Assembly: GCA_030295235.1 (NCBI GenBank)
Contig: AP026132.1
Coordinates: forward strand, 1-64,000
Source: Fistulifera solaris
Taxonomy: Eukaryota
DNA length: 64,000 bases
Reading direction: 5' to 3'
The notes under the pieces are model-generated. The model saw only the letters and a program-made list of their open reading frames with translations. It was not told where the DNA came from and ran no database searches. Numbering within the stretch: the first letter of the stretch is position 1; each line of letters opens with the position of its first letter. Shown one piece after another: positions 9,075 to 64,000 of this stretch. A program made the translations under genes and the position numbers.

Positions 9075-10018
9075 CTTGGATACCATTGGGAGTTATTTGA
9101 AGTTGCAGTTACAAGGTTTGGATACCGTTGAGAGTGCAACGTCGACAATTTTGCAGACGTGGACATGTTTCTTCTCTTGCCACGACTGACTGTCACGTAG
9201 ACCTTCAGTACATTTCTTACGTGTCGTAGCCAACCTACGGAATTTTCTACAGGAATCCAGTACTTGTTTTCTTTGCCACCTCAGCACAAGTTCCTGAAGA
9301 TTGGAGAAAGGTGTGCAATCATTTTCCATTAGAATAGGTCTCATAAAATAAGAAATCAATCAATCTATACCGAGTTTACTGAGTCTTCTTTTGTGGTGAA
9401 ATTCTCAAGGTCACAAGCCTTGCGAGTCGATCTACATCCTTTGGAGTCCAGGCAGGCAGACAGTGAGTAAGTAACAACAAGCGCACTGTGTGGTTGTCTT
9501 TGCTGATCATTGCAATCAAAGAGTGTTTGCGATATCAGTGCTTTCGCTTGACAGTTGATCATCTCATCAAAGAGTGTTGAGTTGGTTGATTGTTGTTTTT
9601 GCGTGAGATCATTCCGCATTCGAATTCCGTGAGCTATCTGTGCGCTCGGAATTTCTGTCAGAATGCTTGATGAACAACAAGCAATGATAATGTAGTTGAT
9701 GTAATATTAGCATCGCGAACAGATACGCTACGCTTGGAAAGATGGTGGCATGAGTAAAGGAATTGTAAATGTTGGTTGTAGTGGTTTTGTTACGACGTCA
9801 GTCGACCTCCTTGTGGCGACGATCTGTTTACCATTCATTCGGATAATACAAAATTTCGCTCCCTGAACGAAAATGTCAGTGCAATGTATGTCTTAAAGCA
9901 ATCAAGGGACTGAAGCGACCAAGGCAAGCGCGAACCACGATGACAAGTGAACAAGCAACGGCAGGTGAAATCGAGTGGTAGAGAAAATTTGAACTGCTTC
10001 GTCAAGGGTTTCTGTTTG

Positions 10019-15587: not shown

Positions 15588-18500
15588 TCAGATTTTTTGG
15601 ACGCGGAGACCGTTGGTGCCTAAAATGGCATCGAGTTCCAAAATGGCAGGCAGTTCAACCATCACATCGTCGCCTATAACCTTGATGGGAAAGGTCAAAA
15701 TTTTGAGGTCACCACCGAGCTCCTCGCCGCTTTCCAATGCGAAATTCTTCTTGTGCAATGGACATGCGACCTTCGGAGTTCCAGCGCTGTCGCCGATGAT
15801 GCCTTGAGACAAGACGAAAGCCTGCTTGTGCGGACACATATTTTGAGTGCAGTACCATTCGCCTCGGGCTACATTATTGAAGACGGCCAACTGCGTTTCC
15901 CCTACTAGAATAGGTGTCCCAACATTTGGTCCGAAGTTGGACACCTTCCCGACGATAATCCAACTTTTTTCAGACTTTGCAAACACATCATCGGTTGGAG
16001 CACGCCACATTGTTTGGGCCTGTCCATCTTTCGGCCAATCTGCCGGGCGCTTCTGGCCTCGCATGTCAACGAACTCAATCATGTGCTCTTTATCAATCGT
16101 CTTGTCGGTATTCGCGAACTGCTTGAACTTTGCGCGTCGAGCTGGGTCCTTTACTACTTCGGCCTGCCGTTCGATGGTATTGTTTGAGTTTTGCTTTAGC
16201 GTGTGTCGAGAAATATTGAACACGACAACAAATTGACTTACCCACTCATCATGATACGTGTCGACCAAATGCTTCATTCTGGCGTCAAGTTCCGCACATA
16301 TCCCTAGCGAGTCTTCGATGATGACATCGCGCAAATGTCCAATGACAGTTCCGTCCTTGCCTTTCGGTAGCTTTTGCTGCCAAAAAGCCGTGCGCTCCAG
16401 ACGATCCGCTGTCAGAATGTAATACATGATGTATCGGTCCAAATAAAGCAACACGGTGTCTTCGTCGATATCGGTAGCCAGCAGTTGTGCATGAACAGGA
16501 ACAGAACCTCCGTTGCCGCCGACATACAAGTTATAGCCGTTTTCTGTGGCAATCATACCAAAATCTTTCGATTGCGCTTCTGCACACTCGCGGACACAGC
16601 CCGATACTGCACTCTTCATTTTGTGGGGAGATCGAATGCCCTTGTAGCGGTTCTCTACTCGCACCGCGAAACTCACGGCATCTTGTACTCCGTAGCGGCA
16701 CCATGTCGACCCGACACAAGATTTGACCGTACGCAGCGCCTTTCCGTAAGCGTGACCCGACTCAAAACCAGCCTTGCCCAACTCTTCCCAGATATCCGGC
16801 AATTCATGCTTGGCCGCTCCAAACAAATCAACCCGTTGTCCTCCTGTAATCTTGGTGTAAAGGTTATATTTATTGGCCACCACACCCAACGCAATCAACT
16901 GATCAGGGGTTAGCTCGCCACCAGCCACGCGAGGAACAACGGAATATGACCCACCGCGTTGCATATTCGCTAGGGCTCGGTCATTTGTATCTTGAAGCGC
17001 TTCATTATCGTCGATAATGACATCATTGACAAGTGAAGCCAAGATAGAACCCACAGTTGGTTTGCAAATCTCACAGCCGTCACCGCTTCCGTGTTTGTGC
17101 AAAATCTTTTCGAACGAATCAACGCTAGTAATGTCCGGATCCGTGCGGACCAAAGCCATGAGTTCCGTGCGACTGTAAGCGAAATGTTCACAAAGATGAT
17201 TGGAGAGACTACCACCAAGTTTTTCAAGCTCAGACGCTAATACAGCTTTCACTTGGGACTCGCATCCTCCGCATCCAGTTCCGGCGCGAGAGCACTTTTT
17301 CACATTGGCGTATGTAGCTTCCTGAACACCGAGCTCTTGAATGACGGAGGCAATCGCGCCTCGGGTAACATCATTACAGGAACAGATTTGAGTGCTGGGG
17401 TCGTCGCTAAGACTTTCCTCGTCCATGCCACTATCTCCACGAGCCGAAGGTGGTGCGAGTAAGACAGCACCGGGCACGTCAAGTTCTTTGTCGCCGGGCA
17501 CAGCGAGCTTATGCAAACGGTCGTAATCGCCGGCATCGCCCACCAGAATTCCACCACGCAACTTTGTACCGGCCTTGTTAAAAATCAGTTTGCGATAAAT
17601 GCCAGAAATAGGATCATTCCAAACCATCTCGCTAACATCATGGTCATCCGGTCGGGGCTGGTTGACACCAAAGGACGCCACATCGCAGCCGAGCAACTTG
17701 AGTTTGGTAGACATGTCGGCGCCAGTAAATTCTGGCAGTGCGTCGCGAAAGACGCCCCAGTCGGCTGCAATACACTTGGCAGCGACATCCGCCATCACGT
17801 ATCCCGGAGCAATCAAGCCGTAGATGAAATTATTGTAAAGAGCAATCTCGCCAATGGCATACACGTCTTCCACGCTTGTTTTCATGAAGTTATCGACGAC
17901 AATGCCCCCTCGCTCGCCAATTGATATCTTGGATCCGTCAGCTCGAGCCAAGTCGTCACGTGGTTTGATACCTGCCGAGATGATGACCATTTGAACCTCT
18001 AAATCGTCCCAATCTTCATTACTAAAGCGCAGCGCTGCGACTGGACTTGTGCTCTCCATATCCGTCGACCCATCTTGCCCAACAATCGACTCGGTGCGTG
18101 CACCACAGTGAACCTTGAGACCCATTTCTTCGATCTTTCCCACCAGAGCATTGTGACCGCCTTGATCAATCTGTCGACACATGAGGATGTCCGCGAACTC
18201 AATAATATGCGATTCGAGACCCATGTCTTTTGCGGCTTTGGCGGCTTCCAAACCGAGCAAGCCTCCTCCGATGACGGCCGCTTTTTTCACGTTATTGTCA
18301 GCGACATACTTGAGCATGCTCTCCAAGTCTTCGATAGTGCGATACACAAACACACCGGGTCGCTGCTTGCCCGGAATGGGAGGGACGAAAGGAAACGATC
18401 CAGTAGCCAAGACGAGTTTGTCGTAGGGGAATCGTCCGACCGGATGCTCCGGTCACCGTTTTGGATTCTGTGTCAACCGCGATAGCTTTATCATTCAAAT

Positions 18501-21040: not shown

Positions 21041-23597
21041 ATGTTAGGATGGATGAACGATTGTCTTGAGAAGCTCGTCGTCGAGAAATTCGGGATCGAT
21101 GCATGGCATGAAATCAAAACCATTGCCAAGTGCGACGTTGCTGACGGCGGCTTCTTACGATTTGAGGAGTATCCCGATCAAGGCGTCTATGATCTTATTT
21201 ACGCTGGAAGTAAAGTGTCCGGCTTAACCGTTAATGTTCTCTTGGAAGAATTCGGTCGGTATTTTGTTCCTTACATCTCCAACTCCGGTCATGAGAATCT
21301 GGTAAGCTTTTTTAAACAAATGAACCAGCCCTCGCCTGCTATATAATATGTGACTCATCTGATTGACTCAGCTTTGGTGCCAAGGAAATACGCTAAAGGA
21401 CTGGGCAACCAACATCAACGCCATTCACAGTCATCTACAGACGACGTTTCCGAACAAAATGGTTATGCCCGAGTTCTGGGTGGAGGAAATGGGCGAGGAT
21501 GGTTCTTTGCACCTCCATTTCGTTTCAGCTCGAGGGCCAATTTTAGCACCGGTGGGTAAAGGAATCGTCATGGCAGTTGCTGAAAAGGAATTCGAACTTG
21601 ATATTCTTATGGAGCAACTGCAAACTCAAGGACAAGATGGAGCCAAGGCGACAACGTAAGTTTCTGTTGCACTTAAGAGCTTGAGCGCAACAAAATCCGC
21701 AGTCTAAATTGCCTCTTTACCAGCTGGAGAATCACTACCCGTGACCCGTTGGACATGTTCAAATTGACGCAGAAAAAGAACAAGTGGATTGAAACTGTAT
21801 CTCCCCCTCGTGTATTGACCTGTCCAATGTCGGGAATCACTTTGAATATGGCAAATGACGATGAGATGTCGGAAAACAGTGCGAACGAGATCCTGGACTC
21901 CCCACCGCGATGTCCCATGTCCAAGGATTACTCGACGCCCCCGTCGAAGAAGTCGAAAAAAGCAATCCAGGAAAACGAGTGTTTCCACTGTAGTATCTCA
22001 AATGACAAGATCGACGGAAGAAAGTGAGAATTCCGACGATGAATTCGACGATGACGATTCATTTCAAGCTCCTATCCAAATGACGGCAGAGCAAGCGAAA
22101 AGTGTGGTTTCGAAAAGCACTCGCACTTCGAAGACCTCTTCGACGGGATCCTCTGTCGGCATTACATCCAACGCTGCCTCAAATGGTTTATCGATTGCCA
22201 TGACGAGAAAATTATTTCCTTATCACATCACGCTGAGTAAGCATTTCGTGATCCTCGACGTTGGAGAGGACCTTCCAAAGATTCGCGGTGTCCCCAATAC
22301 GGAGCTGGTCGGGCGCCTGATTGAGGATGTGTTTTTAATCTCCAAGCCGGATTCGGCAAAATGGACCAAGGGATGGCTTCGTCGTTTGGAGGGACAGACA
22401 ATCACACTCGATCCTTTGGTTGCCCATGGCAGTACAATGCGCTTTGCAGGAAGTGTTGTAACCATGATTGATTCGATCAATGCAAAGTGGATGCTGATCT
22501 TAGCGCCAGACGCAAGCAACCTTACGGAGCTGCGCGGAATCGGTCTCACCCTCAGCGATTTGCCGGCTCATGGCTGTTATCGTGATGCAGTATTCTTGCG
22601 CGAGCACCTGAGCAGCCAAATGCAAGATGCATTGAAAATGGAGAAACTCAGCAAGTCCTTGCAGCGAGAAAAGGGGCTTCTGGAGTCGTTGCTACCTCAG
22701 CATGCTGCCGAAGGATTACGAATGGGACGCACCGTCAAGCCGCGCCTTCACAACAACGTGACCATCTTCTTTTCGGACGTGGTTGGTTTCACTAGCATCG
22801 CGGACAAGCTGTACCCTTGGCAAGTGATCAACATGTTGAACCAGCTGTACTGTATCATGGATTTTCTCGCCATCAAATTCCATTTGTTCAAGATCGAGAC
22901 AATCGGAGACGCGTATGTGTGTTGCAGCGGACTCCCGGAGACCGATGAAAATCACGCCAAGAACGTTGCCAATTTCGCGTTGGCCGTCCGACACTGCTGC
23001 CGTCACGTCAAGTCGCCTGTTGACGGGAAGCCGATTCAGCTGCGCATTGGCATTCATTCGGGAGCCTGTGCTAGCGGTGTGGTCGGTGTGACCAATCCCC
23101 GATATTGTGTCTTTGGTGACACAATGAACACGACCGCCCGACACGAAACAACCGGTTCGGCCAACATGATCCACTGCTCGAGCGTAACGCGAACAGAGCT
23201 ATCTCGAAATGCACCGACTTTATTTTCTTTGAAGAGACGCGGCAAGGTTGAGATGAAAGGAAAGGGTACTCTGACAACGTTTTGGCTTGATGCTTCTAAA
23301 TCGAACGAAGCTTTTTCGGCTGAGGGTCTGGCACAACTTGATGAATTGGTATTGAAAGAGTTGGGACAAATGGCATCCTTTGGAGCTGACGACACTTTGA
23401 AACAAGATCAGTCGAAGTTACCCGCAAGCCCTGTCAAAAGCGACTGTTCGTTGAACATGGAATCCAATGACCATCGATCCCTCGGCGATATGTTGTCGTG
23501 TCTATCACCACTACTGCCAAAGAAGCAAAACAATCCATTCGGTTTACCCCCTGGTATGCTTCTTTCACCGACGCCTTCCCTGATGATGTTCATCTGA
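21041..23597 (+). CDS. Soluble guanylate cyclase-like protein: H-NOX (HNOB) + HNOBA + class III cyclase
   Basis: MLGWMNDCLEKLVVEKFGIDAWHEI; heme His in INAIHSHL; LHFVSARG; FSDVVGFT, KIETIGDAY, PRYCVFGDTMNTTAR. GT-AG introns at 21302-21371 and 21656-21723; one indel near 21960. Confidence 0.92.
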
Positions 23598-27983: not shown

Positions 27984-28472
27984 CTTGAGTTTTTATTCTT
28001 ACTGTAGTAAAAAGTGTAGACTTCGTCCTTTGCTGCACTGGAAACTTGAAGTCTTCAGTCTTCAAACGAACTTGAGGAAATTATTAACAGATTTTCTGTA
28101 TCTATCTAAAAACACCGTTTCCAGAATATCTGGAATTTCTTACACGGAATTACTAAATAATTTACAAAACATTTTATCAGTCCATAATAATTCTTGAAAA
28201 TACACACTAGCGAGCTGCTTTCAATGTGTTTGTTAACGTGTAACGTGTAATATCTAGACTTCCACTTCAGAAGTATGTCTTCATTTTTTTTACTACTCGG
28301 AGTAACTCGATCTTTTCCCAATCATCTTTCTATGAGATTATTTCTCATCATGTCCTCGTATATTCGATTTAGACATAGCTTCGAGTTATTTTTGCACATT
28401 CGCATTTCTGCATCGTCACAAATATTCTAGAAGTCAGAGGCCATAGGATTGGAATTTCGTTTTACAATCATG

Positions 28473-28540
28473 ACTCATGACTGGAGCAGCAGTCGTGGCA
28501 AAGGTAATCTACATTTTGGGGCCATAGTAACTGTCCATGG
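28473..28540 (+). repeat. Solo copy of hairpin repeat family A
   Basis: act-CATGACTG-gagcag-CAGTCGTG (28476-28497), 13 nt, ACATTTTG, then atagtaactgtccatgg, which resembles atagtaattgttaagg after the 62361 copy. Confidence 0.8.
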
Positions 28541-28833
28541 AAAATGTTAGCCTCATCTCTAACGCATAAAGTAGGTCCGAAATCCTCCGTCATCGCGTCC
28601 GCAGTGTGTACAAGTATCTCGCGGCGCCTCACGATCGCGACGAACATGATGATGCGATGATGATGATGAGAGTCAATCACACAAAAGGTTGACGAGTCGA
28701 AGAAAGGAATTAACGTTTAACATTGCGTTTCATAACAATTACCAGACCTTGTCTGTTGCTTTGTATTCGCGTCGCTTCCGTCGCAGCACACACGTAATTT
28801 CTTCTTTGTGCTTTATAACGCATAACCAACAAT

Positions 28834-39605: not shown

Positions 39606-40350
39606 GGTAACTAACTTTCGCTTCCGATCGAGAAGCTGGATTTCTTAGCGCTTGGAAGCAATGAGATGGAGCAGGAAGCTTTTTTCTAAGGAAAGCAGCA
39701 AGTTGATAAACAATGGAGCTCTTTGTTGCCCTTGTAATCGTTTTGAAAGGGAAGACGAGTGTTGCTTTTGGGCTTCGGCTCAAAAAGAAAAAATTTAGAG
39801 GGTCTTTGTGGTCATTCATGTCGCGTCGCGCCATAGAGCGGCCTGCGCGAGATTCTCTAAATAGAATCCGTTTGAGATCCTTCTTTTGTCTACAAGCAAG
39901 CCAAGCCTACATTTTGTATCATACCAGCGCAAGGCTTAAGTCCACTTACTTAGAAGCAAAGAGTTTTAAGTTTTTAGGTATCCATTGCAGTCATCCAGTC
40001 TTCTTCGGAGTAAAATAATGACCAGAAACAACAGAAGGGCAATAGCGGACTATTCTTACTCAGAATTTCTGAGTGACAGAGCTCTGTTGACAAGAGAGTA
40101 GGCCACTCTAATGACTCTAATTCACCTTGTTCCTCCGTTGTCTTTGTCGTACATTCTGGGTCATAGGGTCACAATTGCTTTTCGATAGTAGGTCATCAAG
40201 ATGTTTCTATAATACTCAATAAACCATACATAATCATGATTTCAAATTTCAAATGACTACTGTAGAGACTCTCTCTCTAGAGAGAGAGAAAGACAAAGAA
40301 AAAGACAAGGGACCGAAGACGATTGGGGAATGAAATATGCTTACCAGGTA

Positions 40351-55720: not shown

Positions 55721-57018
55721 AATTATCTTCTAAGAATAGAACATCATCAGCTCAAATCAAAGATAACGTAGATCGTAGATAAGCCACCTCTCAACCGTCG
55801 ACTGAAGAAGTTACAAGGATTTCAACTCATTTTAAGCCAACTTAAAAATGAAAAGATGCCGGGGCTTTACATGCTGTATAGTCTTCGTAGGTTGCTCGTT
55901 CTTTTTGCTTCGTATCAGGATGCTCGCTTTCGGTTCCGCCGAACGCGTGACATTTCAACACGGGACAGACGCGAGACACAGACGCTCGGATCTGGGATGA
56001 CATTCTCCTTCTTGTTGTTTGATGTTTCAGATTGCGCAGTTGCGCAGAGAGAGCGGAGAGGTGGCTGTGCGTTGTGCACTTTTTTCTCCTGGGAGACACG
56101 GGAACGCACCTCTGCTTGGTACATTTTTCTACGGGGGCCTACGTGAGTGTACACTTTTTCCCGAACCTTCCAGTCAACCAAGTGTCAAACGTGTGAGGAC
56201 TGGGGACTGTGGATTGTACATTGTACATTGTACATTGTACAGTTAATTTCCGAGCAAGTTCAAGCAGAAACATAGAACGCCGAAACGACGCCGCAGTAAA
56301 GTTCAAGGTTCAAGGGAAGATTCAATTTCAGATTTCAGTGTGGATTTTAAAGTAGTACCATCATGTTTCTGGGTCTTGGTTTCTTTTTGAAGCAAACAAG
56401 TAAGTTTTCCAGTCTCCTCAAAAATGTACATGAAGATAAAATAATAATGACCATTAAGCATTAAAAGCATTGATCATTGATTGGTTCATTTCAATTATTG
56501 ATCATTCTCGGTTCTCGGAAGCTCTAACTCTTTTCTGTTTTTTTGTTAACGCAGCTTTAGGAATTCAAAATATGTTTACGAGTAACGAACGTACCTCGTA
56601 CTCTTTAAGCTCAGTTGGCATCTGCTACTTGAACTATCTTTCTTTCTTGTTTCTTGTTTGACATCACTTCTTAACTAACTTGAATTTGCGCTGGCACTGT
56701 GAGCTGGCAGTTGGCATTCAGTCATCGTTCCATTTATTTAGTTTGATCCTTAAAGTACATCTTTCTGGCATGGGATATTTGGGAGTTGGGAGCAAGTTCC
56801 AAACCGTTCTATTTGGACTTGGTATGCATCACATGCCACTTGCACATGCATCATCATCGTCCGAATGCGCGGGAGAAGATAAGAGCGGCTCGGAACGCGG
56901 AACGCTCGCAAGTTCGCTCTCGGCAAAAGGCTCGTAAAATCGGTGGGCCTTATTGTTTTTCGACCTGACACTCATTGCATCCCATTCATCTTTGTAAAAT
57001 ATCATTCTTTAAGCAACA

Positions 57019-58764
57019 ATGAGACACGACGACTTACTCATCACTTTGGCTTACTTCTCTATCCCGATACAGCTGCTAATCTCGCTATATTACTATCCGC
57101 TGCTGAAAGTTACACCCAAACGATTTCTCGCGTTGATTGTGCTTTTTGCCCTATTCATTCTGCTTTGTGGCGTGGGGCACTTGCTTCGAGCATTTGGTTT
57201 GCATGGTGACTCTTTTGAAGTCCTAAATGGCTTAACTGCCGCCATCAGTGTGACAACGGCACTTTATTTGATTCCTATGATCCCTAATATCATGGCTACG
57301 ATCGAGAATGCGCTCGCTGAATTGAAGATGAAAGAAGAATTAGAGGAAATCAAGAACCGAAAGCTAATGACTTTCATAGGTTTCTTGTGTCACGAAGTTC
57401 GTAACCCGCTGTTTGCAATTACCAGCAGCATTGCCTTCATGAAAGAAGGAGGCAACGAAAGGGATAGAGTCAATTGTCTTTGCTCGATTGAGCAAAGCGC
57501 GAATCTCATGTTGCGGTTAGTGAATGATGTGCTCGATATTAGCAAGCTTGAGTCGGGAAAGGTTGAGCTGGAGTTGAAAGGATTTAATGTTCTGGATCTT
57601 TTTAACGGGATATCCGCGTCTATCCAGACACAAATTCGTCACATGCGGGGCGCTACGGTGACTTTCACTTCTCATATCGGAGAAAACGTCCCAGCTGTCA
57701 TCGAAACGGACCCTGCTCGGCTGCTTCAAATTGTTTACAACTTGTTGTCGAACGCCTCCAAGTTCACCGAGAAAGGAAAGATTGATTTCATGGTAGATGT
57801 CGTACGCTATGATGAGGCTTTTGGAGATGATTCGCTTGCGGATGAATCACTGAGACGCTTTCCGACAGGAGATGAACCAGATTTTTCAGTACAGTTGCTA
57901 GCAAGCGATGATCAAGCTTTCATTGTCGGAAATCGATCGGATCAACATGTACTCAAAATCGTGGTAGCAGATACTGGGTGCGGAATCGCCCCCGATCGAG
58001 TTAATGACATTTTCCGACCTTTCAATCAATCCAAGGTGTCAGATTTTAGAAAATTTGGAGGGACCGGTCTTGGCCTGAGCATTATTGCTCAACTTGTCAA
58101 GGTGATGTCAGGAAGAATTCAAGTCGATTCGAAAGAGAACGAAGGTTCGACTTTCACCGTTTATTTACCCGTGCTGATACCCACAACTCTGCAAGCTCCC
58201 CCGATCCTGGATACCGAATCAATACTACACGATTCTATCAAGAATAGTCGCTTACCGCCCATGCTAGTAAATGATGGCAGCATTGAGTTTGATGATGTAG
58301 TTACTCAGGAAGCTCTTTCCATGTCATCGCCGCCCTTCACGCGCGACGTTCAAGAGAACGTTTCTGCCCCACCGAACAACAATAAGGTTCTAGTTGTGGA
58401 CGACAATACCGTGAATCGAAAAATCTTAGGAAGAATGCTAGCGAGCTTTCAACTAATCGTAGAGTTTGCTACGAATGGGCAAGAAGCGGTGAATGTTCTT
58501 GCAAGTAATTCTGATTTCGGGTTGGTACTAATGGACTTGGACATGCCCGTTTTGGATGGAATTTCTGCGACCCGAATAATTCGGAGAGATCTCGGTTTGA
58601 CAGATTTACCTATCATTGCGCTAACAGCATTTGCCGTCCAAACGCAAGCAGAGGACGCGTTGGATGCAGGCGTGACAGAGTTTGCGACGAAACCTATTCT
58701 CAAAGAGGACTTACGGCAAAAGTGTTGCCGGTATTTGCTGAATAGGACGGATGAGATTGTTTAA
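57019..58764 (+). CDS. Ethylene-receptor-like hybrid histidine kinase (3-TM ethylene-binding domain, HisKA, HATPase, receiver), copy 1
   Basis: DDLLITLAYFSIP and FILLCGVGH match ETR1 DFFIAIAYFSIP and FIVLCGATH. H-box CHEVRNPL, NLLSNASKFT, DTGCGI, GGTGLGL; receiver VVDDN/LMDLDMP/KP. Confidence 0.92.
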   Translation: MRHDDLLITLAYFSIPIQLLISLYYYPLLKVTPKRFLALIVLFALFILLCGVGHLLRAFGLHGDSFEVLNGLTAAISVTTALYLIPMIPNIMATIENALAELKMKEELEEIKNRKLMTFIGFLCHEVRNPLFAITSSIAFMKEGGNERDRVNCLCSIEQSANLMLRLVNDVLDISKLESGKVELELKGFNVLDLFNGISASIQTQIRHMRGATVTFTSHIGENVPAVIETDPARLLQIVYNLLSNASKFTEKGKIDFMVDVVRYDEAFGDDSLADESLRRFPTGDEPDFSVQLLASDDQAFIVGNRSDQHVLKIVVADTGCGIAPDRVNDIFRPFNQSKVSDFRKFGGTGLGLSIIAQLVKVMSGRIQVDSKENEGSTFTVYLPVLIPTTLQAPPILDTESILHDSIKNSRLPPMLVNDGSIEFDDVVTQEALSMSSPPFTRDVQENVSAPPNNNKVLVVDDNTVNRKILGRMLASFQLIVEFATNGQEAVNVLASNSDFGLVLMDLDMPVLDGISATRIIRRDLGLTDLPIIALTAFAVQTQAEDALDAGVTEFATKPILKEDLRQKCCRYLLNRTDEIV

Positions 58765-59839
58765 AATCGAATTCATCACGTATAATTTAGAGCTAGATGT
58801 TTATGAAATGTCAACGCTGTTCTATTCTGAAAATGTGGAGAGAAAGCTAGACCTCTACCGGCTTACGTATCCTTAGGAGTAATTATAGACAGCCCTACAG
58901 CTAGTCTAGCTAAAGAGGTTTGTCGTCAATCTCACTTTGGAGCTTTAATCGTAATAGAGAATACGACTATCCTTTCTTGTGATGTTGCGTCAGGCGTCAG
59001 GCGTGAGACAAGCATGAAGAATATCTAAAATCTAAACGGTAAACCGTTGAGACATACTGTAGATTCATGAGACAAGTGACAAAGTGACAAGTGACATCAC
59101 TGCGTTACTCCGTATTTCCAAACTCCAAACATCCAAAATCCAAACCCCAAACCAAACTTGGGAACAACAAAGAACAAAAACTGTGATGCGATGTTCAACT
59201 TATCGTAAAGATCACTATATATAGAAAAAGAACCTAGAATAACCTTCTCAGTCACCGCTAGCTTGGGCCTTTCTCAATAAAGAAAATAGTACCTCATCTC
59301 AACTACCAAGTAGTCGTTCTTCGCCTTCGCCTGCTCGATGCATTCTCTCCTGGTTGTACAGTGTTATTTTTGACACGTCATCGTTTTTAGAGTGCGTGGC
59401 GCACGGCGTGCCTATAGCCGAAACTTTATTTCCGTCCGGGACGCAAGAACGCAAGAACGCAAGAAGCACAATTTTTACAGCGCGAAATGTACGGTACCGC
59501 AACCTACGTACAACTGAAACAACTTTGTCGCAGATTACTAGCACTATAAGATTTAGAGTAAAGAACAAGTGTAAAAATGTGTCTCAACGAAAAACTTAAG
59601 CGATATTTTTCCGAGGATCGAAGGAAAAGTACGTGCTTCATTTCTGAAATTCGGAATGTCATGTTTGATGCATAGGTCGTGGCGATTGCACACGGTGATA
59701 GCGCGAGAAATGTCTGTTTCCGGCGTTGTTCAAATCGCGTGCTCGCGGCGCTTGTGTCATGGAAGTGGAAGGGGAAAAATCCATTTTCCTTTTTATCCAT
59801 TGAATTCGCTGTTAACAACAAAACCAATAATCTACTATC

Positions 59840-61582
59840 ATGAGACATGATGACTTATTAATTACGTTGGCATACTTCTCTATCCCGATACAGATACTGA
59901 TCTCTTTGTATTACTATCCGTTGTTGCATGCAACTCCGATACGATTCTTGGCCCTTTTCGTGTTGTTCGCCTTGTTCATTCTGCTGTGTGGGATAGGGCA
60001 TCTATTGCGAGCCTTTGGAATACATGGTGATGAATTCGAGCTCTTGAATGGTTTAACGGCAGCAGTCAGTGTCATTACCGCACTTTACTTGATTCCCATG
60101 ATACCCAATATCATGTATACGATTAAAACGGCGTTAGACGATATCATTTTACAAGAAGAATTAAACAAGAATCGAAAGCTAATGGCTTTCATGGGCTTCT
60201 TGTGTCACGAAATACGTAATCCGCTCTTTGCGATAACGAGCAGTATCGCTTTCATGAAAGAAGGAGGCAACGAAAAGGATCGCATCAACTACATTTATGC
60301 AATTGAACAAAGTGCTAATCTCATGCTGCGATTAGTGAACGATGTTCTCGATATTAGCAAACTTGAATCAGGAAAAGTTGAACTGGAAAGGAAAAGTTTT
60401 AATGTTCTGGATCTCTTAAATGGAATATCGGCTTCCATTCAGTCTCAAGTTCGTCACATGCGAGGTGCCGCGGTTGCTTTTAATGCGAAAATCAGCTCGA
60501 ACGTTCCAGCTGTCATCGAGGCAGACCCTGCACGACTTCTTCAAATTGTCTACAACCTGCTTTCGAATGCCAGCAAGTTTACGGAGCAAGGAAAAATTGA
60601 CTTTACGGTAGATTTGATTCCGTACGATGCGGCTATCGGCGACGATTCTTCCGCCGACAGCGGAGGACTGCGTTCCTCACAGGACGATGAAGGTGATTAT
60701 TCGGCTCGTTTGCTGGAAAGAGATGGCTATGTAACAGAGTCGGAGTATAGATTAGAGCAACATGTTCTCAAAATCAGTGTTGCAGATACTGGTTGCGGAA
60801 TCGCGCCAGATCGTATTGACGACATCTTTCGACCTTTTAACCAGTCCAAAGTCTCTGACTACCGAAAGCACGGAGGGACAGGTCTGGGTTTGAGTATCAT
60901 CGCACAGCTGATTAAAGTCATGGCTGGAAGAATTCAGGTCGACTCAAAAGAAGACGAAGGATCCACTTTTACAGTATACCTTCCTGTTTGTTTACCTTCG
61001 GCCAATACAACATCTTCTGCTCTGGATACCGATTCGATTTTGAACGACTCAATCAAGAATAGGCGTTTACCGCCCATGCTCACAAACGAGAACAGAATAG
61101 ATCGTTTCGACGACTCGGAGAATAGCAGCGCGGATTCACCGCCGCTGTCGCGGCCTAACATGGATGACGTGGACGATTTTCGACATTTGCAGACGGATAG
61201 TAAGGTTTTAGTGGTCGATGATAACACGGTGAATCGAAAGATTCTTGGACGCATGTTATCTAGCTTCCACTTGGAGGTAGAGTTTGCTACGAACGGTCAA
61301 GAAGCGGTGGATATCCTTGCAAGTAGATCTGGATTTGGGTTAGTACTGATGGACTTGGATATGCCTGTATTAGATGGTATATCAGCAACTCGCGTTATCC
61401 GGAAAGATCTCGGATTGACCGAGTTGCCTGTTATCGCTTTAACTGCATATGCTGTCCAAACACAAGCGAAAGAAGCACTGGATGCAGGTGTGACGGAATT
61501 TGCTACAAAGCCTATTTTGAAAGAAGACTTGCAACAAATGTGTAACCGATATTTGCTGAAACGAACGCAGGAGATAGTGTAG
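59840..61582 (+). CDS. Ethylene-receptor-like hybrid histidine kinase, copy 2 (tandem paralogue)
   Basis: Same architecture and motifs as 57019-58764; intact ORF with extensive synonymous divergence. Confidence 0.92.
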   Translation: MRHDDLLITLAYFSIPIQILISLYYYPLLHATPIRFLALFVLFALFILLCGIGHLLRAFGIHGDEFELLNGLTAAVSVITALYLIPMIPNIMYTIKTALDDIILQEELNKNRKLMAFMGFLCHEIRNPLFAITSSIAFMKEGGNEKDRINYIYAIEQSANLMLRLVNDVLDISKLESGKVELERKSFNVLDLLNGISASIQSQVRHMRGAAVAFNAKISSNVPAVIEADPARLLQIVYNLLSNASKFTEQGKIDFTVDLIPYDAAIGDDSSADSGGLRSSQDDEGDYSARLLERDGYVTESEYRLEQHVLKISVADTGCGIAPDRIDDIFRPFNQSKVSDYRKHGGTGLGLSIIAQLIKVMAGRIQVDSKEDEGSTFTVYLPVCLPSANTTSSALDTDSILNDSIKNRRLPPMLTNENRIDRFDDSENSSADSPPLSRPNMDDVDDFRHLQTDSKVLVVDDNTVNRKILGRMLSSFHLEVEFATNGQEAVDILASRSGFGLVLMDLDMPVLDGISATRVIRKDLGLTELPVIALTAYAVQTQAKEALDAGVTEFATKPILKEDLQQMCNRYLLKRTQEIV

Positions 61583-61747
61583 TAACAGCAAGGGCAGGCG
61601 AGTATCATTGTATCACCCACAATTCATTCATTTTTCCGATGGCTCCATTAAATTTAAACGAAAAATACATTCTGAGTTAAAAGATAAAATCCATAGACGT
61701 ATTGCGACAGATTATTTCCCTTTTCGCATTACAAGTCTGGAACAGTG

Positions 61748-62220
61748 TCACTTCTTGAACGTTGAATACAATTGATACACGCCCCATATTGGAAACACCC
61801 AAATTCCCCAACAAATAAATCGTAGTGAAAGGATAGAAGCGTACTGCAGTAATAAAGCCAAGCCTAGAACATCCAACGATTTTCCTCCGGTCAGTTCACT
61901 GCTTTTACTGCTTTTCGCCGATGCTGTCGTTCCTGATGCCGCGTGCTCTAGAATACCCTTGTAAGCTGTGTACTGCATCATCATTAAAACCGCCAGACCG
62001 AGTCCTTCCCATCTAACAGTAAAGGGTCTTGGAGAAACAAATGTTCGTATAGCAGCATAAATGAGATTAAGAACCAAAATAATCGGCTGATAAGTCGATG
62101 AAGCGGCCTGACGCGCTAAAATGACTCGAGGTTGTCGTGAGACACAAACGAGAGGAAGGATAATTACGTAAGAAAAGTTACCGTACCTGCGGCGGCCTTC
62201 TTCGCAGCAGCTCCGGCCAT
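61748..62220 (-). CDS. TMEM208: TMEM208/SND2-like (DUF788) ER membrane protein
   Basis: Exon 1 MAGAAAKKAAA (62220-62187), GT-AG intron 62116-62186, hydrophobic helices, LDVLGL...FPIWGVYQLY. Confidence 0.7.
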
Positions 62221-62354
62221 GGTTTCTCAGCAACTAAAGATAAAACGATTCCTGTTAAATTGTTTATTGCTATTGTTTGCGAGACAGCTTACGAACATTG
62301 CCGCAGAAAATGACAAATAATGCTTGGGTCCATCGTTCATATCGTCGGTGCGAC

Positions 62355-62838
62355 GTAGTTCATGACTGAAATGCAGTCGTGGATAATTGAGCTAACACAT
62401 TTTGTATATTATAGTAATTGTTAAGGACTGCATTCCGCGAGCGTGTTTCGACGATAAAAACGGATGTACTGCACAAGAGTAATAGTATTATAGTTTTCGT
62501 TGATTGCAGCTAAGAAAGAGAAAAATATAGATTGCAGCTAGCGCGAATAGCGTCATACATAAATGTTACTCATGACTGAAATTCAGTCGTGAAAAACGTC
62601 GCCTACATTTTGAGCCTACAGTGAATATTGAAAACAACAATCTTCGAAGTAAGGAACCGAGGCGCGCAAGGAAAATGACACTGTAGATAATAATTTATGT
62701 GAATAAGAGCAAATGGAGCTTGTGTTGTCTGCAGAATTAACCGAGGATAGGTTGCAGTTTGGTGCATAAAATTATTCCGTAAGACTTATGACTGAAACTC
62801 AGTCGTGGCAGATGTCGCTTCTTACAGTACATTTTTTT
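62355..62838 (+). repeat. Array of three hairpin repeats (family A) at 210- and 216-bp spacing
   Basis: catgactgaaatgcagtcgtg (62361-62381), catgactgaaattcagtcgtg (62571-62591), tatgactgaaactcagtcgtg (62787-62807); each followed by ACA and a T-run. Confidence 0.9.
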
Positions 62839-63014
62839 ACGGACCGATAATAGACATCAGACATCACATATCACATCAGCGATCGGCAGCCTTTTTTCCA
62901 CTAAACTAAAACAGAAGGATTTGTACAAGTAATTTATTAGTGCGTGGTAAATCGTTATGCATCTAATTTTTATGTTCATCGAATGCCTGTTTCAAAGAAA
63001 TGAAGCTCTAAGCT

Positions 63015-63620
63015 TCAACTGTATTCAGTTGAATCCAGATCTGGGAGGGCGATGCTGGAGACTACATCGAAGTTTGCGAAGCTGGGGCACTCTCGCAATT
63101 TTGACTGTCTTTTTTGATCAAAGGTTCTCTCCGGAGAGAGCTTAGGTCTACAATAGACCGGTGTCTTGTCCATCAATCGCCTGCGAGTAGGAGTTCTTCC
63201 TCTCGCCTCTATCCTGTTGGATGAAGAGAGGCTAAGATCATACTTGATATTATGCGACTTGTTCTCGGGCGGTGATAAAGTGATGCCGTGGTAGCGTTTC
63301 CTCACGTTCGTCAAATCGAAGTTAAGTACGAACGACAAGAGCTTACTGAGTTCTTCATGACATTGAGAAGCCGGTGTGCTCTCTTCTGTGGAGCGCTTCG
63401 GAGATACAGAACGTCTCGGGCAGACTGGTGGCTTATCGACAAATGGCTCGCCAATCAAAGACCATGCCCTCCTTTCGCTTCCTGTGTTCGGACAGCTTTT
63501 CCGAAGCGGTTCATCTGATCTGTGTTTTCGGGCTCCCGAATCGAATCGTTCTGGTCGAATCGGCTGATGATCTGCTGCGAAGGAATCGAAGCGACTCAAA
63601 TTCAAAGAGTGTCGATGCAT
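63015..63620 (-). CDS. Hypothetical low-complexity protein with repeated DKPPVCPRR-like motifs
   Basis: 201-aa ORF; DQPIRPER / DKPPVCPRR / DKTPVYCRP-type repeats. Confidence 0.5.
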   Translation of the reverse strand: MHRHSLNLSRFDSFAADHQPIRPERFDSGARKHRSDEPLRKSCPNTGSERRAWSLIGEPFVDKPPVCPRRSVSPKRSTEESTPASQCHEELSKLLSFVLNFDLTNVRKRYHGITLSPPENKSHNIKYDLSLSSSNRIEARGRTPTRRRLMDKTPVYCRPKLSPERTFDQKRQSKLRECPSFANFDVVSSIALPDLDSTEYS

Positions 63621-64000
63621 TACAGACCTGATGAAACGAAATGAACGAACAGAAAGCTTTTTATGTGAAAGTTAGTCTGCAGACAACAAGAAGAAACACG
63701 AAAGGAAGATGTGGCGCTGAAATCTGATTCCTTTTTCAATGGTTCCTAAAATCTGAGAAATAGGATCGACGTACTTTTGCATCCTTTGGAGCCATCGCAT
63801 AATCCATCAATTAGCTGGTATTACCCATCACATTTTGCCCTCACCGTCCTTCTTGCCGTTTCTTTCCTATTTCGATGCTGGTTTTCTCGTTTCTTTCCTC
63901 TCCTCCATCTTGCATTGTACAATTGAGCATTGAGACTTATAAGATGAGAGCCAGAAACAGAAAACAAAAGTGCAACTGTATCATTCTCGCCACAAAGGAC

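Follow-up and report, generated by a model that had tools for sequence, protein, structure and literature searches.

In the 64-kb stretch of Fistulifera solaris DNA analyzed here (64,000 nt of contig AP026132.1; hereafter the window), a short intergenic DNA unit consisting of a hairpin, a linker and an ACATTTT(G) box is repeated in a tandem array of three copies near the end of the window and occurs a fourth time on its own. This unit is a real, non-random and constrained element, which is longer and more widespread than an initial annotation of the same DNA had recognized, and it is far more strongly conserved than the duplicated DNA that surrounds it. Constraint is indicated by the decay of flanking DNA without decay of the unit, by recurrence of the unit at tens of loci and by its survival in both diverged versions of the array locus. 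Most likely, the element represents a family of small hairpin-RNA genes, or else the promoter of such a family. As a self-contained block with + strand polarity, a T-run at its end, multiple copies, an intergenic location and partial clustering is most simply accounted for by tiny RNA genes, we tentatively read the units as a lineage-specific, multi-copy family of small hairpin-RNA genes that end in a T-run.

The biology of non-coding RNAs in diatoms is poorly charted; a small-RNA survey in Phaeodactylum detected no canonical miRNAs and a wealth of small RNAs whose biogenesis is unknown (PMC4247016). A near-invariant unit of approximately 48 to 80 nt would hence, if transcribed, provide a handle on a new class of small RNAs.

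Anatomy of the unit and its copies in the window

An exact 20-nt pattern, ATGACTGAAANNCAGTCGTG, was found at positions 62362-62381, 62572-62591 and 62788-62807 of the window, in each case on the + strand, and had no match in 100 dinucleotide-preserving shuffles of the window when up to two mismatches were tolerated. A repeat finder placed the array copies at spacings of 210 and 216 nt, so that both methods agree with the three + strand copies and the two periods initially described. Alignment of the array copies delimited a conserved unit of approximately 48 nt, which is made up of a 9-bp hairpin, a semi-conserved linker of 13 nt and the box ACATTTT(G); the initial annotation was thus right about a conserved hairpin, but the conserved unit is about 48 nt rather than 21 nt long. 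While the linker measures 13 nt in copies 1, 2 and 4, it measures 21 nt in copy 3. ACATTTT is invariant across the three aligned array copies; the next base is G in copies 1 and 2, while copy 3 has seven Ts. An ACA located 13, 13 and 16 nt past the 8-bp stem in copies 1, 2 and 3, respectively, and followed by a T-run, agrees with the sequence as previously reported; the box of copy 3 that is homologous to those of the other copies is its second ACA (62829-62838). In agreement with the initial annotation, no stop-to-stop open reading frame (ORF) of at least 70 aa overlaps positions 62234-63014. A peptide reading of the motif, which opens with ATG, was rejected, as the resulting frames of 6, 20, 20 and either 16 or 26 codons have unrelated tails.

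Copy 1 (62356-62405, +), which is supported by the exact motif, by pairing and by 64.9 bits in the covariance model search described below, forms its hairpin between positions 62360-62368 and 62374-62382 around the loop AAATG, with ACATTTTG at 62397-62404. Copy 2 (62566-62613, +; exact motif, 63.9 bits) pairs 62570-62578 with 62584-62592 around the loop AAATT and carries, after its 13-nt linker, ACATTTTG at 62605-62612. In copy 3 (62782-62838, +; exact motif, pairing, 59.0 bits), 62786-62794 pairs with 62800-62808 around the loop AAACT, and the first inner pair is U-G instead of C-G.

The covariance model was built from the three array copies only and was run as an unfiltered search on both strands of the window. 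The 15 matches at E ≤10 included the three training copies (59-65 bits), two weak - strand echoes that correspond to the palindromic copies 1 and 2, nine matches with E >1 that were treated as noise, and one new match that was not in the training set, at 28471-28519 (+; 35.5 bits, E ~6e-6). This solitary copy 4 has arms identical to those of the array, a 6-nt loop (GAGCAG), a 13-nt linker and ACATTTTGG; both arms and the ACATTTTG box at the 13-nt distance are exact, and the loop differs in sequence as well as in length. It is located approximately 34 kb from the array, alone in an intergenic region, and together with the further genomic copies described below it shows that the array is not isolated. 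In all four copies, which are those examined at the sequence level, a T-run of at least four closes the conserved block (T4 in copies 1, 2 and 4; T7 in copy 3). A weak third box, YAYAGTRA, follows ACATTTTG after 4-5 nt in copies 1 (62410-62418), 2 (62617-62625) and 4 (28523-28531); the third box of copy 4 overlaps the right-hand member of an 8-nt direct repeat, GGCCATAG, which lies around this copy on the + strand at 28439-28446 and 28520-28527, approximately 73 nt apart.

Partial matches elsewhere in the window were rejected as units. At ~9177-9189 (-), a 12-nt exact match to the 3' arm and the start of the linker (CAGTCGTGGCAA) has neither the 5' arm nor the box and is probably a chance match or a relic, and a partial match at 39905-39916 (+) does not look like a unit. 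As a separate observation on the array, GCGACG, located 5 nt upstream of the hairpin of copy 1 (62350-62360), is the reverse complement of CGTCGC in copy 2 (62597-62602), and CGTCGC occurs 5-6 nt downstream of the hairpins in copies 2 and 3; the inverted repeat between copies 1 and 2 is extended by GCGACG/CGTCGC to 37 nt with 78% complementarity.

Constraint, strand polarity and dispersal of the unit

The 80 nt upstream of copy 1 (62281-62360, +) align co-linearly with their homologous counterpart at copy 2 (62491-62570, +), with a score of 13.5 as compared to a null of 5.3 ± 2.1 (p = 0.006; 500 shuffles), and the comparison of the latter with the 80 nt upstream of copy 3 (62707-62786, +) gave p = 0.044, while the other four upstream pairs among the four copies gave p values of 0.15-0.73. 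Because the upstream DNA of neighboring units is homologous, the three array units are old tandem duplicates. The upstream 80 nt of neighboring array units have retained only ~60% identity, yet the hairpin arms show a single change over 16 positions in three copies and the ACATTTT box shows none; arms and box have thus been kept while the duplicated upstream DNA decayed, which bears out the conserved scaffold initially proposed. Since decay is uneven over as little as 130 nt, the arms and the box appear to have been subject to selection or to conversion. The "highly divergent" spacers of the initial annotation are a more mixed case; flanks do vary, and the bodies of the spacers (189-195 nt between units) are not detectably similar (p ≥0.12 in 14 of the 15 local-alignment pairs), but the 80 nt upstream of neighboring units are homologous. 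The sequence ATAGRTTGCAG noted earlier upstream of copies 2 and 3 is real and is present as ATAGATTGCAG at 62527-62537 and as ATAGGTTGCAG at 62747-62757, respectively; the upstream ATAGnTTG box is found 33-44 nt from the hairpin, at a distance that varies.

When the four copies were folded jointly with RNAalifold, one 9-bp helix was found and nothing else in common. All 36 stem cells form standard pairs on the + strand, as compared to 28 of 36 on the - strand, consistent with the earlier statement that the G-U wobble is available on the + strand only. The stem has undergone just two changes (C-G to U-G and U-G to U-A), both of which are one-sided and keep the pair on the + strand, and one stem position is U-G in all four copies. 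Hairpins of the + strand are also more stable than those of the - strand, both as RNA and as DNA. The loop varies between 5 and 6 nt while the arms stay the same, which is easier to reconcile with a stem-loop than with a rigid dimer site in duplex DNA.

Beyond the hairpin, fold tests of the copies identified no consistent outer stem. The stretches of approximately 147-149 nt that follow the ACA box of copies 1-3 gave z scores between -0.34 and +1.73 in 6 of 6 folds (200 shuffles, both strands), so that the spacers are predicted to fold no better than shuffled sequences. A z score of -3.3 for the whole array was rejected as a sign of a long structured RNA, because it arises from the palindromic copies 1 and 2 pairing with each other. 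An Rfam scan of the whole window yielded no family at the gathering score, with only chance-level matches (E of 0.45 or more, up to 10) near the units, and no tRNA-like gene was found in the window.

The occurrence of the unit elsewhere in the genome was assessed with contigs from four public runs aligned to positions 61500-63300, and it is from this single analysis that the size of the family and the diversity of its flanks are taken. Contig depth in a DNA-like run of the same organism (X1) reached 491 in the bin of copy 1 and 236 in the bin of copy 2, with a flat level of ~20 elsewhere; the corresponding values in a metagenome containing the same organism (X2) were 131 and 116, with 9-12 elsewhere. 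Overall, 46 contigs from X1 and 36 from X2 were aligned, most of which matched in part only. The contig pieces that were listed match 62569-62612 or 62361-62403 with ~6 differences and are found in contigs of 550-1554 nt that are otherwise unlike the window, with the loose ends on both sides of the matched block agreeing at 0.43-0.63 only. A block of ~44 nt thus recurs in a few dozen contigs with unlike flanks; as repeated words are common break points of such contigs, there may be closer to 15-40 loci. Rather than hundreds of fragments of a transposable element or satellite, we therefore found tens of copies with only the short unit in common. The 25 nt that precede copy 4 resemble one of the upstream loose-end consensus sequences, which suggests that the unit of the main family is longer, approximately 75-80 nt. 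A joint of 62382 to 62568 in at least three X1 contigs suggests that pairs of units in series are present at other loci, too.

Contigs from both X1 and X2 also revealed a second version of the array locus, which differs by 14-16% over 62198-62287 and 63013-63294 and probably represents the other subgenome of the allodiploid. This version aligns to the motif, through joints of 62287 to 62569 and of 62591 to 63013, and the rest of its approximately 700 nt of intergenic DNA gave no alignment at 85% likeness.

Searches outside this organism returned chance-like matches. Among metagenome contigs, the 20-nt motif was found at 28 loci, none of which (0/28) has the linker or the ACATTTT box and many of which represent one bacterial gene family, so that we regard them as chance matches; the pattern used required a 5-nt AAANN loop and is thus blind to copies like copy 4. 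A gapped pattern of arms plus ACATTTT matched two loci in prokaryote genomes, both of which look like chance (rough expectation ~3-4), and none in viral contigs. No description of the element was found in the literature searched with 16-nt strings of the hairpin and with keywords, a collection that includes few subscription journals.

Proposed small hairpin-RNA genes and competing explanations

If the units are small hairpin-RNA genes, the array would be a tandem cluster of three family members, with a fourth member 34 kb away. Each unit would be self-contained, with a length of ~48 nt here and probably 75-80 nt in the main family, and would be transcribed on the + strand into an RNA that ends at the T-run, either in the style of RNA polymerase III (Pol III) termination or as a U-rich 3' end. 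The product would consist of a 5' stem-loop and a short single-stranded tail, which a protein may recognize through its sequence. In terms of layout, the nearest described analogue is the Class I RNAs of Dictyostelium. These RNAs are 42-65 nt long and are encoded by 18-39 genes per species; the genes are intergenic, often form clusters of at least two non-identical genes, have an upstream conserved element and downstream T-runs, and specify a terminal stem that varies in sequence (PMC7919456). The diatom units resemble Class I genes in being intergenic, clustered and present in tens of copies, in combining a short stem and a short, strongly conserved block with otherwise variable sequence, and in having an upstream conserved element and downstream T-runs (PMC7919456). 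In contrast, the sequences are unrelated, the hairpin in the diatom is local and invariant in sequence, and expression has been proven for the RNAs of Dictyostelium, a member of the Amoebozoa, and is a prediction for the diatom units.

A number of points weigh against a family of hairpin-RNA genes. Every step beyond the DNA anatomy of the unit (i.e., its transcription, the polymerase involved, the ends of the RNA and a function in trans) is one that we infer, the sequence-level view is limited to four copies, and the size of the family derives from contig depth and counts in one analysis. Inspection by eye revealed no recognizable Pol III A or B boxes and no upstream sequence element (USE) or TATA box at a constant distance. 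None of the nine stem pairs shows a compensatory, two-sided change among the four copies, so that there is no covariation proof for the stem, and these copies share no fold beyond the hairpin. Invariant arms with a free loop are the reverse of what is seen in most protein-bound RNA hairpins, and a DNA site would fit this pattern equally well. Finally, ACATTTT resembles an initiator, so that the block might serve as a promoter and not itself be a product. Both alternatives offered in the initial annotation, an array of protein-binding sites and a rolling-circle remnant, are among the rivals that still compete with this reading.

A promoter or cis-regulatory module is the strongest rival, albeit in our judgment a somewhat doubtful one. 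In this case, the unit would be a double-stranded DNA module with a near-palindromic factor site 13 bp upstream of an initiator-like CA(+1)TTTT, and would either give rise to + strand transcripts that are short or unstable, or control the neighboring genes (i.e., a TMEM208-like gene and a RING/C2H2 ORF, see below). Invariant arms around a free center are also seen in dimer sites, each of the four copies lies between genes and close to a gene start, and conservation stops just past the box (alignments end at 62612), as if the transcribed part were variable. Proximal promoters of the small nuclear RNA (snRNA) type (PSEA-PSEB/TATA) consist of a long block, a spacer and an 8-bp box, and the invariant block of ~21 bp, fixed 13-bp spacer and 8-bp AT-rich or initiator-like box resemble this layout, including in that the block is common to many small units; unlike in such promoters, no known snRNA or small nucleolar RNA (snoRNA) is found downstream with Rfam, and the block is nearly palindromic, can form a hairpin and has a wobble polarity that favors the + strand. 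The oomycete initiator is YCAYTYY with A at +1, and ACATTTT fits six of the seven positions of this stramenopile/oomycete motif (PMC3599244). On the other hand, a rigid dimer site would not usually shift its arm spacing from 5 to 6 bp with the arms intact, + strand pairing is preserved by both stem changes, and factor sites are usually much shorter than the block of at least 44 nt that unrelated loci share at ~86% identity. Because several upstream ATGs lie between copy 4 and the ATG of the RING/C2H2 ORF, this copy is not the core promoter of that mRNA, and the downstream spacers, which have no fold signal and at 85% likeness did not align with the other version of the locus, make conserved non-coding RNA products unlikely. 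If the unit nevertheless proved to be a promoter, it might be useful in diatom engineering, as expression of guide RNAs needs a defined small-RNA promoter and terminator. We consider it unlikely that the units are relics or ends of mobile elements without a host function, be it the hairpin 3' end of a rolling-circle (Helitron-like, HUH) element, a miniature element or a retroposed Pol III RNA, and a transposon end would make the finding an ordinary one. This explanation draws on copies that are dispersed with unlike flanks, on the CTAA (copy 1) or CTAC (copies 2 and 4) that follows the hairpin after 10-11 nt, on the GGCCATAG direct repeat that flanks copy 4, and on the terminal hairpins and the insertion in one orientation that are typical of HUH transposons (PMC10288648). 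A hairpin ~10-11 nt before a CTAA/CTAC-like tetranucleotide, and copies that are dispersed, oriented and able to stack in tandem, are likenesses to the ends of Helitrons and other HUH elements (PMC10288648). A Helitron-type end was rejected, as similarity in such an end should stop at a CTRR located 10-12 nt past the hairpin, whereas CTRR is present in one of four copies only (copy 1; copy 3 has CTTC) and conservation runs on through ACATTTTG, with the ACATTTT(G) beyond the tetranucleotide kept in all four. No conserved interior is apparent, there are no terminal inverted repeats, and no flanking direct repeat of at least 8 nt was found in three of the four copies; moreover, neither flank is shared among the other genomic copies, as apparent from the loose ends. 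Replitrons, another group that uses hairpins, were not detected in diatoms by the author describing them (PMC10288648), and a Pfam scan of 19 ORFs of the window, which was not exhaustive, identified no Rep or helicase domain. Lastly, the arms of the array have remained intact as compared to the co-duplicated DNA upstream, whereas neutral relics would be expected to decay evenly.

Explanations that invoke other classes of RNA carry far less weight. It is very unlikely, in our view, that the units are autonomous mini-genes for trans-acting diatom small RNAs of a kind not described before; each RNA would begin with a hairpin handle common to all members, continue into a short single-stranded stretch that varies in part, and close with a 3' element that is rich in U and Sm-like or La-like. 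Taken furthest, to a spliced-leader donor, this idea would imply trans-splicing in a diatom. Spliced-leader or Sm-class RNA genes in a tandem array, which we consider highly improbable, would have a leader of ~20 nt formed by the 5' arm and loop, a GU donor inside the 3' arm and AUUUUG as Sm site. Very short spliced-leader RNAs exist in other lineages, the units are multi-copy and tandem at ~210 nt, and a stem-loop with GU is followed by single-stranded AUUUUG(G/A/U) in three of the four copies. Compared with the Sm site consensus RAU(4-6)GR, however, these three copies read CAUUUUG(G/A/U), with C rather than a purine as the preceding base, and copy 3 has no G after the U-run. Furthermore, an AUG would be present in the leader, the donor lies in a poor sequence context (GUCGUG or GUGG), and the U-run is not followed by a conserved 3' stem-loop. 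To our knowledge, none of the many diatom transcriptomes has led to a report of trans-splicing. The array had initially been proposed to encode H/ACA-like guide units in a polycistronic transcript or to be a repeat-spacer array processed at the hairpin, and we regard either as extremely improbable. The regular spacing speaks for these readings, and an ACA 13-16 nt after the stem, with ~3-4 U residues next, does recall box H/ACA snoRNAs, but the 9-bp stem is uninterrupted in all four copies, with a loop of 5-6 nt and no internal pseudouridylation pocket, and there is no second hairpin, no H box, no fold signal in any of the six spacer folds and no Rfam match above chance level. In H/ACA RNAs, the ACA box is located 3 nt from the mature 3' end; here, ACA is followed by TTTT in all four copies. 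A repeat-spacer array, including a CRISPR-like one, is contradicted by spacers of ~190 nt (189-195 nt) that are partly homologous between neighbors and by solitary and dispersed copies outside arrays, and the host is a eukaryote. A C/D snoRNA was also rejected; no RUGAUGA box was seen by eye in spacers 1 and 2, and a weak sn1185-like match at 62863-62883 (-; E = 9.5) covers 21 nt as compared to a model of 66 positions.

Neighboring genes and other contents of the window

On the left side of the array, a - strand gene resembling TMEM208/SND2 (61748-62222) was identified by a weak Pfam match (E = 0.0065) that falls short of the Pfam cut-off. Its start codon (62222) is approximately 140 nt from copy 1, which places the array in the upstream region of this gene. 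Contigs from two runs that behave like poly(A) RNA (X4 and X5) cover, within 61500-63300, positions 61500-61675 and 61811-62096 only, and the empty cover over the array says nothing either way about its transcription. The first exon of the TMEM208-like gene is directly followed by a likely GT...AG intron (62100-62190, -), and cover by the RNA contigs ends at 62096. On the other side, an ORF of 218 aa without a Pfam family (63015-63671, -) has its stop at 63015, and the array is hence located downstream of it. The second version of the locus aligns to this ORF from 63013/63014 on, either gap-free or with two close, offsetting 1-nt gaps, and 13 of the 22 differences listed between 63047 and 63234 fall on third codon positions of the - strand ORF, which supports it as coding.

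Copy 4 is located ~315 nt upstream of the ATG (28835) of the RING/C2H2 ORF, and on its other side lies a probable - strand gene with a weak pyruvyl-transferase match. An ATGATG-type microsatellite (28646-28670, +) is present between copy 4 and the RING/C2H2 ORF, with several ATGs before the start of this ORF.

Further from the array, two tandem, intron-free hybrid histidine kinases of 583 aa (57013-58764 and 59831-61582, +) are 75% identical, and each contains ETR1_N (ethylene-receptor-like, N-terminal), HisKA, HATPase and receiver domains. An X4 RNA contig ends at 61675 with an untemplated A-run, ~93 nt past the stop of the second kinase, which marks the poly(A) site, and thus the 3' end, of the mRNA of that kinase. 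A fused NAD(P)H nitrite reductase of the NirB type with a Rieske domain is encoded at 15588-18452 (-); its best named match, at 95% identity, is from Fistulifera solaris, with other diatoms at 78% or less, which places the window in this raphid pennate diatom or a very close relative. F. solaris is allodiploid, and the 95% match is probably the copy of the other subgenome. A guanylate cyclase with an HNOBA domain is encoded at 21846-23597 (+).

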